This document shows, piece by piece, positions 22,915-26,674 of a DNA stretch of 64,000 nucleotides (positions are counted from its first letter, which is position 1; each line of letters starts with the position of its first letter). The stretch lies in assembly GCA_964496815.1 (NCBI GenBank), contig CAZCAO010000001.1, positions 17,803-81,802 on the forward strand. The letters run 5' to 3'. This DNA comes from an uncultured Candidatus Saccharibacteria bacterium (GTDB taxonomy: Bacteria; Patescibacteriota; Saccharimonadia; CAILAD01; JADZBC01). The position numbers and the translations under genes were made by a program. The notes beneath the pieces were generated by a model. That model was not told where the DNA came from, made no database searches, and saw only the letters and a list, made by a program, of their open reading frames with translations.

Positions 22915-23676
22915 GTGTCTCATATAATTGCTATTGCCAACCAGAAAGGAGGGGTAGGTAAAACTACCACCAGTATCAACCTGGGCGCCTACTTGGCTAA
23001 ACAAGGCCAAAAGGTATTAATTGTCGACTTGGATCCTCAAGGCAATAGTTCGAGCGGCCTGGCGATTGCCAAAAATCAATTACCGGCTACGGCATACAAT
23101 GTACTGATCGAAGGCGTTGTAGCAAGCGATGCCATTCAGGCTACTGGCGTGCCAAAACTCGATGTGCTACCGGCCAATGCCGTCTTAGCAGCTGCCGAAT
23201 TAGAGCTATCGACCATGCAACAAAGAGAATACCAGCTGCGCAAGGCACTCGGCGGTTTAGACTATGACTACATCCTGATTGACTGCCCCCCTTCGCTCGG
23301 GCTACTGACGCTCAATGGGCTCGTTGCGGCGACTCACTTGCTTATACCTGTTCAGTCTGAGTATTATGCCCTTGAGGGCCTCGGCCAGCTCTTAACAACA
23401 GTAAAAAGGGTGCGACAAGGCCTTAACCCACAGCTCACGCTGCTTGGTGTGGTCATCACAATGCATTCATCACGAACGAGTTTAGCCGCTCAGGTACAAA
23501 AGGAATTGAAACATCATTTTCCAGATACATTGTTTGATACAATAATTCCACGTAATATTAGATTAGCAGAGGCGCCAAGCCACGGCCGACCGATAAGCCA
23601 GTATGATAGGTTTTCCAAAGGCGCCCAGAGTTATAAGAAGCTTGCGAAGGAGGTAATGCAGCGTGTCAGCAAATAG
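22915..23676 (+). CDS. parA: Chromosome partitioning ATPase ParA/Soj
   Basis: 'KGGVGKTTT' deviant Walker A; GTG start after AAAGGAGGG. Confidence 0.9.
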   Translation: MSHIIAIANQKGGVGKTTTSINLGAYLAKQGQKVLIVDLDPQGNSSSGLAIAKNQLPATAYNVLIEGVVASDAIQATGVPKLDVLPANAVLAAAELELSTMQQREYQLRKALGGLDYDYILIDCPPSLGLLTLNGLVAATHLLIPVQSEYYALEGLGQLLTTVKRVRQGLNPQLTLLGVVITMHSSRTSLAAQVQKELKHHFPDTLFDTIIPRNIRLAEAPSHGRPISQYDRFSKGAQSYKKLAKEVMQRVSK

Positions 23677-24559
23677 TCAGAATACTAATCGACTGGGTAG
23701 GGGGCTTGAGAGCCTTATACCGACAGATATTGATGAGTTTGCCGCCCCTTCGATGCCGAAGGAGCTGATAAAAGAAGGCGCTCGAGTCGAAGACTTAGGT
23801 ATCAACGATATTGTGCCGAACCCAAATCAGCCACGTTCAACTTTTTCCGATGAGCAACTGGGCGAAATGGCACAATCAATTAAGGAGCATGGCATCGTTC
23901 AGCCGCTCGTGGTGGTGCGCGACGGCAGTACCTATCAGTTGATTGCTGGCGAGCGGAGATTGCGTGCTGCTAAGCTCGTTGGCCTAAAGACCGTGCCCGC
24001 AATAGTACGTAGCTTTTCGCAGCAAGAGCAGCTCGAGGTGGCTTTGATTGAAAACATTCAGCGTAGTGAGCTCAATGCCTTGGAGCTCGCTAGTGCCTAC
24101 GCCAAGTTGGCCGATCAGTTTAGCATGACGCTCGAGCAGATATCGCAGCGTGTTGGTAAAGCGGTTTCTACAGTGGGCAACATTATGCGCTTGCTGAACC
24201 TGCCACACGAAGCCAAAAAGGCTCTCAATGAGGGCCTAATCACCGAGGGCCATGCCAGGCAGATCCTTGCCGTGACAGATCCGGAGGATCAACTGATCTT
24301 TCTCGACATGATTATCAAGGGCGGACTGAATGTGCGTCAGGCCGAGGAATTGGCCCGTAATTTCAAAAAGGAAGGTAAAGCGGCGGTTAAGAAGGTGGTT
24401 GAAAAGCAAACCTACAATGCGCAACTAACTGCCGATCTCGGCAGGTATCTTGGTACCAAAGTAGATGTCCAAAAGACCGCCAAGGGTGGCAAGCTGGTGA
24501 TTGAATTCTATTCCGACGAGGAGCTTGGTCGTCTGTATCATCAAATCCTAGGGGAGTAA
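23663..24559 (+). CDS. parB: Chromosome partitioning protein ParB/Spo0J
   Basis: 'GERRLRAAKLVGL' ParB box, HTH. Confidence 0.9.
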   Translation: MSANSQNTNRLGRGLESLIPTDIDEFAAPSMPKELIKEGARVEDLGINDIVPNPNQPRSTFSDEQLGEMAQSIKEHGIVQPLVVVRDGSTYQLIAGERRLRAAKLVGLKTVPAIVRSFSQQEQLEVALIENIQRSELNALELASAYAKLADQFSMTLEQISQRVGKAVSTVGNIMRLLNLPHEAKKALNEGLITEGHARQILAVTDPEDQLIFLDMIIKGGLNVRQAEELARNFKKEGKAAVKKVVEKQTYNAQLTADLGRYLGTKVDVQKTAKGGKLVIEFYSDEELGRLYHQILGE

Positions 24560-24561
24560 AA

Positions 24562-25017
24562 ATGGCAATTCGAGTACATGAACTCGGGCACATAGTGCTT
24601 TATGTGCGCAACGTGATTCGCTCCTCAGAATTTTACGAGAAGGTTTTAGGCTGGGAAAGACTGTCTAGCTCAGCTGATTTGCCGGTTGCTTTGTTCTCAA
24701 GTGGTCGAACTCATCATGAGTTGTTACTAATTGAGGTTGGCGAAGCTGCGGGCAGAGTTAGGGGTGGCTATCGAACAGGGTTGTACCACTTTGGGCTTAA
24801 GGTGGGTGACAGTGATGACGAACTCAGAGAGGTCGCCCGTGTATTACGTAAAAATGGAATAGAAGTTGCTGGGGCAACAGATCATAACGTGACGCACAGC
24901 TTGTACATTGAAGACCCTGATGGCAACGAAATTGAGTTATACATTGATGTGCCAGGTGTTGACTGGAGGTCTAATCCAGGCTTGATTATGGCCCCGCCTA
25001 AGCCCCTAGAGCTATGA
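24562..25017 (+). CDS. VOC family protein (glyoxalase/bleomycin-resistance/dioxygenase fold)
   Basis: 'HIVLYVRNVIRSSEFYEKVLGWE' and 'HSLYIEDPDGNEIELY' VOC pattern. Confidence 0.75.
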   Translation: MAIRVHELGHIVLYVRNVIRSSEFYEKVLGWERLSSSADLPVALFSSGRTHHELLLIEVGEAAGRVRGGYRTGLYHFGLKVGDSDDELREVARVLRKNGIEVAGATDHNVTHSLYIEDPDGNEIELYIDVPGVDWRSNPGLIMAPPKPLEL

Positions 25018-25862
25018 ATGTAGACAGCTTCATTCCCTTTGATAAATCTTGGCTAATCCGTTTAGGTGTTTTGGATATTATTAACGGTAGAGATCAGATA
25101 ATTAGGGTTCTAGAGAGAGCGCCGGCCAGGTCTTTAGGTTCCGACCTCGAGGCACTACTGCGAGCAGCGCGTTTTTGGCATATAGGTACAGAGATTGATG
25201 TCGGAGAGTCGGGTACATTGTATCGCTTTTTAATGTTCGCAAATTGGAAGTTTGGCATGGGCGTTCATTTTAAGACCAAGGGCACATTACAGGAGAGAAA
25301 ACTAACGGTCGATGACTCTGTTATAGGTATGTCCGTTAAGGATTTACTTAAACTTGATTCTCATACGTCGCAGTGGGCTAGCGCGGCTGTGCTATTTACT
25401 GACACGCCGAGACCCCCTGGAACTCTGCCATACCATCTAGAGATGACCTTCAAAGCAAAGGAGCATTGGAACGAACGAATTGATAATGGTTTGGATTGGT
25501 TACCTCGTAGGGATGCCACAATCTTGCGTCAGGCACACGCTTATAAGTTTTATTGTGATAGTGGAGTTATGGAGTTTACGCCAATCCAGGCAGAGGACTA
25601 TTGCTTTGCGCGCGCCTTTGGCCTAATGACTGCCAGTGATGGCGAAGCGCGATGGCCGAGTTTGCGGCAACACGAGAGCGATCGTATTGCCGAAATGGAG
25701 CGGCTCTTAGTAGCCGATGCAATAGATTCTCATGACCATCGAGTCGTACAGGCGCTTGCAATGTTGGGTGTGAAAAAATCACGCTTTAGCGATCCTGCCT
25801 GTGTTGCCAAGACCTGGCCACAGTTCTGGGATTATTTGGATGCCGTTGCAGTTCGAACTTAG
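25014..25862 (+). CDS. Truncated EPSP-synthase (AroA/EPT-fold)-like protein
   Basis: N-terminal 'DKSWLIRLGVLD...IDVGESGTLYRFL' resembles AroA 'SKSisnR...LDcGNSGTamRLL'; C-terminal 'HESDRIAEM...DHRVVQALAMLG...DPACVAKTWPQFWDYL' resembles AroA 'KESDRI..DHRmAM...dpkCtaKTfPdyF'; only 282 aa (AroA ~430). Confidence 0.5.
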   Translation: MNVDSFIPFDKSWLIRLGVLDIINGRDQIIRVLERAPARSLGSDLEALLRAARFWHIGTEIDVGESGTLYRFLMFANWKFGMGVHFKTKGTLQERKLTVDDSVIGMSVKDLLKLDSHTSQWASAAVLFTDTPRPPGTLPYHLEMTFKAKEHWNERIDNGLDWLPRRDATILRQAHAYKFYCDSGVMEFTPIQAEDYCFARAFGLMTASDGEARWPSLRQHESDRIAEMERLLVADAIDSHDHRVVQALAMLGVKKSRFSDPACVAKTWPQFWDYLDAVAVRT

Positions 25863-26674
25863 TACGTAGGGTGCTTGAGTGGGCCGAGTTCATTAATTGG
25901 TAGTAAGCGTGCGGTGGCAACTCCAACGATATCAAATCTGGGTAGTTGTCCCCATTCGCGTGAATCAAAGCTACCATTCGGTGAACGATTATCGCCAACT
26001 ACAAAATATTTATCATCCTCGATAACTTCGTCGATCTCGCCCTGTGTGGTTAGAGATTGGTCTATATAGGGCTCATTCAGCACGAGGCCACCGGGATTTT
26101 CCTTGTTATATATAGTGAATTTACCATCCTTCAAAACTACACGCTCGCCCGGTAGGCCGATAAGGCGTTTAATGAAGAACGTACCAGGGCTGTTTGGGTA
26201 ACGAAACACCAAGACGTCGCCGCGTTTGAGATCTAAGCGCGTATCCATGCCAAGCGTTGCTTTGATAGTTGTAAGAGTGAAACCTACCTTGTCGATAATG
26301 AGGTAATCCCCATCTTGGAAATCAGGGTTCATACTGCTCCCCGATACATAGAAGGCCTGGAAGACGAAACTGTGCAAGAATAAGACAATGAGACCTGGAA
26401 GCACAACCCAACTAAAAATCGTTTTAAGCACGCCAAGGATTGCACTGGCTGGTCTTCCCTCGTCCTCGAAATCATCCTCGGCTTCTTGGGTGACTGCCTG
26501 CTCGGCCGCGGGCTTGATAGGCGGAGCTAACTTTGTCTGGTGTGCTGGCGTTGGACTTTGGTGAGGAGGCATGCTGGTCGGCTGCACAGGTGCTGCGGCC
26601 TGAGCCGGTGTTGGAGTCGGCTTTGGTTGGGGCTGCACTGGATGAGATTCGGGGTCTTGTTGCATAGCTATCAT
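25859..26674 (-). CDS. lepB: Signal peptidase I with Pro/Ala-rich N-terminal extension
   Basis: 'GSSMNPDFQDGDYLIIDK' S26 Ser box, 'VVGDNR' box; true start may be Met4 at 26665 (TATAAT 7 bp upstream). Confidence 0.85.
   Translation of the reverse strand: MIAMQQDPESHPVQPQPKPTPTPAQAAAPVQPTSMPPHQSPTPAHQTKLAPPIKPAAEQAVTQEAEDDFEDEGRPASAILGVLKTIFSWVVLPGLIVLFLHSFVFQAFYVSGSSMNPDFQDGDYLIIDKVGFTLTTIKATLGMDTRLDLKRGDVLVFRYPNSPGTFFIKRLIGLPGERVVLKDGKFTIYNKENPGGLVLNEPYIDQSLTTQGEIDEVIEDDKYFVVGDNRSPNGSFDSREWGQLPRFDIVGVATARLLPINELGPLKHPTY

Follow-up and report, generated by a model that had tools for sequence, protein, structure and literature searches.

EPSP (5-enolpyruvylshikimate 3-phosphate) synthase, the product of aroA and the enzyme that glyphosate targets, is familiar from textbooks. 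Its described fold is a two-domain 'inside-out alpha/beta barrel' of six beta-alpha-beta-alpha-beta-beta units spanning approximately 420–450 aa, and to our knowledge the six-unit architecture of around 430 aa is regarded as invariant. We analysed a 64-kb stretch of contig CAZCAO010000001.1 from an uncultured Candidatus Saccharibacteria bacterium (hereafter the window, meaning the whole stretch of DNA under analysis), which carries a gene at positions 25014–25862 for a 282-aa protein that does not conform to this architecture. The product is likely to belong to a family of miniaturised EPSP synthases of the AroA type that had gone unannotated, referred to here as mini-AroA, an assignment drawn from sequence comparison. 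An initial annotation of the locus had described the protein as a shortened relative of AroA and other enolpyruvyl transferases (EPTs), and had considered whether it and the overlapping upstream gene, which encodes a VOC/glyoxalase-fold protein, might be a degenerate remnant, a pseudo-enzyme or a small-molecule-binding module with a new role.

Homology to AroA and conservation of the active site

Alignment of the mini-AroA family profile to an AroA profile by hhalign returned a probability of 97.2 % (E 3.2e-11) over 266 columns. The AroA profile comprised 12 sequences, namely that of E. coli together with those of eleven diverse aroA genes carried on plasmids or chromids. Mini-AroA residues 6–280 were matched to E. 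coli AroA residues 17–425, i.e. the whole chain; against E. coli AroA as a single sequence, only the C-terminal 64 columns aligned. These results bear out the initial description of an AroA/EPT relative that keeps the motifs of both ends and is about 150 aa short, but not the accompanying claim that the central third is missing. Instead, the difference of 145 aa (282 vs 427 aa in E. coli) is distributed along the whole length in approximately ten separate deletions, at E. coli positions 1–11, 60–81, 131–157 (in three pieces), 185–193, 226–235, 253–263, 286–324 and 355–376. The deleted segments are presumably for the most part surface beta-hairpins of the six AroA units. The family-profile search of the PDB gave three collinear motif matches to Coxiella AroA, pairing mini-AroA DKSW-IR with PGDKSISHR, VGESGTLYRFL with CGNSGTAIRLL, and LR-HESDRI...DHRV...K-WPQFW with LRVKETDRI...DHRI...KTSFPNF, with a deletion of ~21 residues between. 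Sequence searches of the PDB with either the single sequence or the family profile recovered EPSP synthases only, with marginal E-values, and no MurA model or structure was matched in NCBIfam (E<=1) or the PDB (E<=10).

Residues of the putative active site were paired with those of E. coli AroA from the hhalign alignment (written mini-AroA = AroA), and their conservation was assessed in an alignment of 151 family members. The corresponding features are as follows.

25035–25061, plus strand: P8–R16, PFDKSWLIR, aligned to AroA PGSKSxSNR (K11=K22, S12=S23, R16=R27); K and R in 149/151 members
25200–25232, plus strand: V63–L73, VGESGTLYRFL, aligned to the AroA LGNAGTAMRPL loop (G67=G96, T68=T97, R71=R100)
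25296–25298, plus strand: R95, aligned to R124, a PEP (phosphoenolpyruvate) phosphate ligand; R in 151/151 members
25365–25379, plus strand: T118–A122, TSQWA, aligned to AroA SSQFL (S169, S170, Q171); Q in 151/151 members
25587–25607, plus strand: Q192–F198, QAEDYCF, with the acidic pair E194/D195 at a helix N-terminus; candidate replacement of D313
25671–25688, plus strand: H220–I225, HESDRI, aligned to AroA KETDRL (H220=K340, E221=E341, R224=R344)
25734–25751, plus strand: D241–Q246, DHRVVQ, aligned to AroA DHRMAM (D241=D384, H242=H385, R243=R386)
25809–25829, plus strand: K266–W272, KTWPQFW, aligned to AroA KTFPDYF (K266=K411)
Remaining pairs from hhalign: D44=D49, E65=N94, T118=S169, S119=S170, Q120=Q171, Y140=Y200

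The equivalents of K22, R27, R100, R124, Q171, E341, R344, H385, R386 and K411 were invariant or nearly so. Within the set that corresponds to the PEP/glyphosate site (K11, G67, R95, Q120, E221, R224, R243 and K266), every residue was present in 149–151 of the 151 members with the exception of G67 (25212–25214), which was replaced by Ala in 35, including the whole clade of the shikimate operon locus L116 described below. These natural Ala variants resemble G96A, a substitution classically associated with glyphosate insensitivity in class I EPSP synthases, and may interest enzyme engineers. Equivalents of the shikimate 3-phosphate (S3P) site were also conserved (S12, R16, T118, S119, Y/F140 and H220), the S3P-site roles of S23, R27, S169, S170, S197, Y200, N336 and K340 being those that we take from the literature on structure 1G6S. 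The positions equivalent to S197 and N336 were variable, the latter being variable within AroA too. Ligand positions were identical between the window protein and members located in shikimate operons. Of the catalytic residues singled out for checking in the initial annotation, K22, R124 and E341 therefore have conserved counterparts, and D313, which is considered below, is ambiguous.

The short form was found to be widespread. A homology search with the 282-aa query returned 721 clusters at 90 % identity, almost all of 270–300 aa and approximately 50 % identical to the query, and a profile search of 1.84 billion representatives returned 161 clusters at 50 % identity (E<=1e-30), nearly all of 270–310 aa. 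A scan of species-representative genomes located the family in at least 171 species of ultra-small bacteria and archaea. The hosts were essentially all Patescibacteria, also known as the candidate phyla radiation (CPR), or DPANN archaea; the former included Saccharibacteria, Paceibacterota and Yanofsky-, Nomura-, Doudna- and Wildermuthbacteria, and some copies were labelled Woese-, Pace- or Nanoarchaeota. An alignment of 49 sequences from both Bacteria and Archaea contained 43 invariant columns. Strong constraint acts on this large family of short proteins, which represents neither a remnant nor an artefact of assembly and to which the window gene genuinely belongs. All named copies were annotated as 'hypothetical protein', apart from a single JGI copy with a spurious endonuclease label. 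Full-text literature searches turned up no earlier account of a shortened EPSP synthase. One family member, P0124 (490 aa), possesses an N-terminal extension of ~200 aa with a signal-like segment and a transmembrane helix, and looks membrane-anchored.

The AlphaFold (AF2) model of the 282-aa protein had a pLDDT (predicted local distance difference test) of 94.9 and was almost all-helical. Tryptophan made up 3.2–3.3 % of residues in mini-AroA vs 0.5 % in canonical AroA, and nine tryptophans of the window protein are conserved (W13, W55, W78, W121, W152, W162, W214, W268 and W272). These residues may cover helix surfaces bared by the loss of beta-sheet.

Genomic context of mini-AroA

Gene neighbourhoods were examined in a first set of 86 loci closest to the window protein, and subsequently in loci from viral and metagenome collections retrieved with a different lead sequence; individual loci are cited by L number. 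Neighbourhood clustering of the first set revealed no neighbour family present in more than eight of the 86 loci, which, taken alone, suggested an orphan gene. Recurrent neighbours were housekeeping genes encoding IleRS, ParB, FtsW, L21, TsaD/Kae1 and PheRS, and searches with E. coli aro queries identified a single aroD-like gene near mini-AroA, in a Woesearchaeon.

Loci from the later collections placed mini-AroA within shikimate operons. A scan of IMG/VR contigs identified L116, in which a family member of 268 aa overlaps the operon genes on both sides in the order chorismate mutase-DAHP synthase, mini-AroA, chorismate synthase and shikimate kinase-dehydroquinate synthase. The same layout was repeated around protein P0167 (L198, from precomputed Pfam calls) and in L120–L126 (metagenome scan), with shikimate dehydrogenase additionally upstream in L125. 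Elsewhere, mini-AroA directly adjoined aroC in L143, L151, L158, L163 and L172, lay 238 bp from aroC in L195, and directly adjoined aroB in L179 and L181. These aroC- and aroB-adjacent members displayed 42–46 % identity to the L116 protein and 44–51 % to the window protein. Among aro-linked members, identity to the window protein (46–51 %) matched the level seen in other Saccharibacteria copies. When the 151 members were placed in a neighbour-joining tree, genes with aro genes adjacent or within 3.5 kb occupied at least seven separate places, and in one clade the mini gene fills the aroA slot of a full operon. Canonical AroA was absent from all ~170 loci; the best score to the AroA profile was 38 bits and always belonged to the mini gene itself.

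Several of the aro-linked loci could be placed by their other genes. L195 is CPR-like, with a TsaD 40 % identical to a Parcubacteria copy vs 28 % to archaeal Kae1 and with a PrsW protease present, and L143 is also CPR-like, its Ham1 being 69 % identical to a Yanofskybacteria copy. The domain of L158 and L163 was ambiguous, as they carry PurP genes and their nearest aroC is on an archaeal contig (L199), but another aroC, closely related to that of L163, was labelled Patescibacteria. L163 also encodes an IleRS of 1155 aa (L163:8756–12223) whose catalytic domain is interrupted midway by a histidine-phosphatase (His_Phos_1) domain. On a further archaeal contig (L200:2177–7272), aroC is followed by genes for a HAD hydrolase, a class V aminotransferase, a 2-hydroxyacid dehydrogenase and SerRS, an arrangement that looks like a serB/serC/serA-like serine module beside a shikimate gene.

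A separate association was found in a Paceibacterota clade, where mini-AroA is fused to an SHMT-like, pyridoxal phosphate-dependent enzyme in L061:718–2877, L074:5989–8121, L077:2072–4186 and L079:2401–4527, and is adjacent to a separate SHMT-like gene in L072 and L088. The fusion partner resembles archaeal-type SHMT/threonine aldolase, with M. jannaschii SHMT as its best PDB match (E 2.5e-26), and all six SHMT-linked clusters hold a protein of 186–188 aa with HAD-phosphatase motifs (FDFDDV, VTHG, FIDDK). A link running from chorismate through para-aminobenzoate and folate to SHMT is possible in this clade.

Two IMG/VR contigs (68 and 134 kb) carried mini-AroA (L113:1857–2747 and L115:4974–5867) among short co-directional open reading frames (ORFs) of unknown function, with a macro-domain phosphatase, an HD phosphohydrolase and DUF5662 as neighbours. 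This layout resembles that of a mobile element or phage; the 5 kb on either side of these family members contained no recognisable hallmark genes. L116 and L117 are likewise filed as viral, yet the shikimate operon is cellular-looking.

The window locus and the VOC gene

The features of the locus are listed below in order of position.

22915–23676, plus strand: parA, context, 5' of the VOC gene
23663–24559, plus strand: parB, context, with a 2-nt gap to the VOC gene
24562–25017, plus strand: VOC/glyoxalase-fold gene (151 aa, single-domain), a lineage-specific neighbour (ORF and Pfam)
25014–25017, plus strand: ATGA overlap of 4 nt between the VOC stop codon and the mini-AroA start codon (read from the sequence)
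25014–25862, plus strand: mini-AroA gene (282 aa), predicted miniaturised EPSP-synthase-like enolpyruvyl transferase (ORF, family search, hhalign and AF2)
25859–26674, minus strand: signal peptidase I gene, convergent, context

The two ORFs and their ATGA overlap, as initially annotated, were confirmed in the sequence. The same 282-aa protein, with the same VOC/mini-AroA pair and neighbours, recurred in four independent assemblies (ENA, Logan). A frameshifted, truncated or misassembled aroA was ruled out by these assemblies together with hundreds of homologs of the same length. The 3' end of the signal peptidase I gene and the mini-AroA stop codon share 4 nt (25859–25862), leaving no room for an intergenic terminator. 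The initial annotation had also noted that no other shikimate-pathway genes were visible, and indeed no homologs of aroB/C/D/E/K or of DAHP synthase were detectable within the 64-kb window. ARAGORN identified no tRNA or tmRNA genes in the window, no Rfam family reached its gathering score there, and neither the mini-AroA nor the VOC protein had a PADLOC defence-system match.

The proposed VOC/glyoxalase fold of the upstream product was supported by a match to PF00903 at 61.8 bits (gathering score 20.6; E 1.1e-16) that covers profile positions 2–121 of 121. The protein fell far below every glyoxalase I and dioxygenase equivalog cut-off in NCBIfam, its best similarities there being to extradiol-dioxygenase-type domains. 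It has at least 7,967 homologs, mostly from organisms outside CPR/DPANN, and its closest relatives outside the window clade are 65–70 % identical, the few named ones being VOC proteins of ~150 aa from Actinomycetota (such as Acidimicrobiales and Frankia). Actinomycetota include known hosts of Saccharibacteria. This distribution suggests that the VOC gene was acquired horizontally; its base composition and GC content are indistinguishable from those of its flanks and show no sign of recent acquisition. Among the first 86 loci, the VOC gene adjoined mini-AroA in only two, the window and L007, a 70 %-identical relative. In the orthologous loci L016 (70 % identity) and L017 (67 %), parB is located directly upstream of mini-AroA with a gap of 6–8 nt. 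The VOC gene is a recent, lineage-specific neighbour without a conserved link to mini-AroA. The ATGA overlap and tight packing indicate that the two genes are probably co-transcribed, which does not imply a shared function.

Alternative explanations and relation to described enzymes

The full-length homology to AroA, the invariant ligand set and the repeated occupancy of the aroA slot indicate that the mini-AroA family is probably an active EPSP synthase, and catalysis of S3P + PEP -> EPSP + Pi is the most likely predicted activity. We envisage that S3P and PEP would bind in a cleft with helix N-termini along its walls, and that the enolpyruvyl group would be transferred by the usual addition-elimination with release of phosphate. 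What would remain after loss of the beta-hairpins is a helical core, for which the nine conserved tryptophans may provide shielding. In the Saccharibacteria-like lineage of the window, mini-AroA is a stand-alone gene behind parAB, and the VOC gene would have been inserted upstream of mini-AroA recently.

Several observations weigh against this interpretation. Curated models do not recognize the protein at their thresholds: PF00275 (EPSP_synthase) scored 21.7 bits, below its gathering score of 22.8, and matched residues 236–275 only, and TIGR01356 (aroA) scored 39.6 bits vs a cut-off of 287. Strands accounted for only 13 of the 282 residues in the AF2 model, and a Foldseek search of this model against the PDB gave no match with E below 0.6, AroA included; retention of the active-site geometry is therefore put forward as a prediction only. 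An active EPSP synthase that has lost nearly all of the EPT beta-sheet would be the smallest enolpyruvyl transferase known and, in effect, a novel all-helical variant of the fold; we hold this to be about as likely as not. The catalytic D313 could not be aligned with confidence, as hhalign places its helix inside the 39-residue deletion; the QAEDYCF motif was paired weakly with E. coli 268–283, and sub-profile alignments were not significant. Position 194 of this motif is E/D in 151/151 members and position 195 is D/E in 150/151 (Ser in one). The spacing between D195 and E221 (26 residues) is similar to that between D313 and E341 (28), making the acidic pair a plausible functional substitute, and on sequence grounds E194/D195 probably stands in for D313. 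Finally, no aro gene was located near mini-AroA in the window clade (the window itself, designated WIN, L007, L016 and L017) or in most of the ~150 loci surveyed, and most Woesearchaeota genomes, which belong to DPANN, are reported to lack the shikimate pathway (PMC10936187). From these reconstructions the window copy could be an orphan, or the reported absence may partly reflect undetected mini-AroA.

The copy in the window lineage might accordingly have ceased to serve a complete shikimate pathway and have been repurposed, either to use another phosphorylated hydroxy-carboxylate acceptor or to salvage, by a truncated route, shikimate or S3P derived from the host. The absence of aro genes from both the window and the syntenic 20 kb of L007, the purely housekeeping surroundings of the Saccharibacteria-type loci (parAB, IleRS, FtsW, L21, TsaD), and the Paceibacterota clade in which the partners are an SHMT-like enzyme and a HAD phosphatase rather than aro genes are all consistent with such a role. 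We nevertheless consider it unlikely, though a serious alternative, as the S3P and PEP ligands are all identical to those of aro-linked members, CPR-like loci (L195, L143) are themselves aro-linked with members as close to the window protein as Saccharibacteria copies, and the pathway genes could be dispersed elsewhere in the genome. Descent from AroA to a non-catalytic ligand-binding module or pseudo-enzyme, one of the options raised initially alongside a degenerate remnant, would fit the possible deletion of the D313 helix, the radical remodelling of the fold and the fusion to another enzyme in one clade, as might be expected of a regulatory domain. It is hard to reconcile with a family in which the E341 and K22 equivalents and every PEP-binding Arg/Lys are invariant or nearly so across 151 sequences, and which occupies the aroA slot in operons otherwise devoid of EPSP synthase; we regard it as very improbable. 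Slightly more improbable still is a functional VOC/mini-EPT pair, for example one in which a Fos-like enzyme shields the EPT enzyme against an inhibitor resembling fosfomycin. The ATGA overlap implies that the two genes are co-transcribed and possibly coupled in translation, and L007 has the same pair, but the pairing is confined to these two loci, is missing from the 70 %- and 67 %-identical orthologs, and involves a VOC family that is enormous and mostly found outside the CPR/DPANN organisms that carry mini-AroA. NCBIfam Fos models scored the VOC protein at 17–28 bits against cut-offs of 171–305, the best being Fos_GSH (27.9 vs 180) and FosB (27.7 vs 171). The protection logic also fails biochemically, since the target of fosfomycin is MurA and not AroA. 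For the window, the proposed VOC/Fos–EPT connection is thereby removed. As for a full-length aroA that has been frameshifted, truncated or misassembled, short length is all that speaks for it; the probability is negligible given an identical protein on at least four independent assemblies, its many same-length homologs and the overlapping genes that tightly flank it on both sides.

A 280-aa form that keeps the active site and drops most beta-strands would define a minimal catalytic core of the EPT fold. A large classification of EPSP synthases considered only Pfam-detected sequences of >350 aa (10.1101/2020.05.27.118265), a filter by which the mini-AroA family would be excluded. As the family escapes Pfam and TIGRFAM thresholds as well as length filters, reconstructions of CPR and DPANN metabolism would score aroA as absent. 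If mini-AroA is an active enzyme, shikimate-pathway capacity in these lineages would be systematically under-called, and stand-alone copies, including that of the window, might enable episymbionts to complete the synthesis of chorismate from intermediates supplied by the host.

In comparison with known systems, the VOC gene product shares with FosA/FosB/FosX the VOC beta-alpha-beta-beta-beta fold family and a similar size, but differs in falling far under the Fos cut-offs and in having generic Actinomycetota 'VOC family proteins' as its nearest named relatives. Mini-AroA belongs to the same superfamily and Pfam family as MurA (UDP-GlcNAc enolpyruvyl transferase), with which it would share PEP addition-elimination chemistry, yet its motifs are of the AroA type (SSQ, KETDR, DHR, KTFP) and none of its matches was to MurA. 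The closest described system is EPSP synthase/AroA (EC 2.5.1.19; PF00275, TIGR01356; E. coli, PDB 1G6S). The differences comprise the length of ~280 vs ~430 aa with its approximately ten deletions, a Foldseek-unmatched model almost without beta-strand, the fixed substitutions K340->H, N94->E and S169->T, the ambiguous D313 equivalence, a tryptophan content of 3.3 % vs 0.5 %, and an annotation as hypothetical with scores under curated thresholds. The similarities comprise full-length homology with collinear motifs, identity at the PEP ligands K22, R124, Q171, E341, R344, R386 and K411 and at most S3P ligands, and the aroA position in shikimate operons. In sum, the gene is best described, from its sequence, as a new and strongly reduced variant of a known enzyme.

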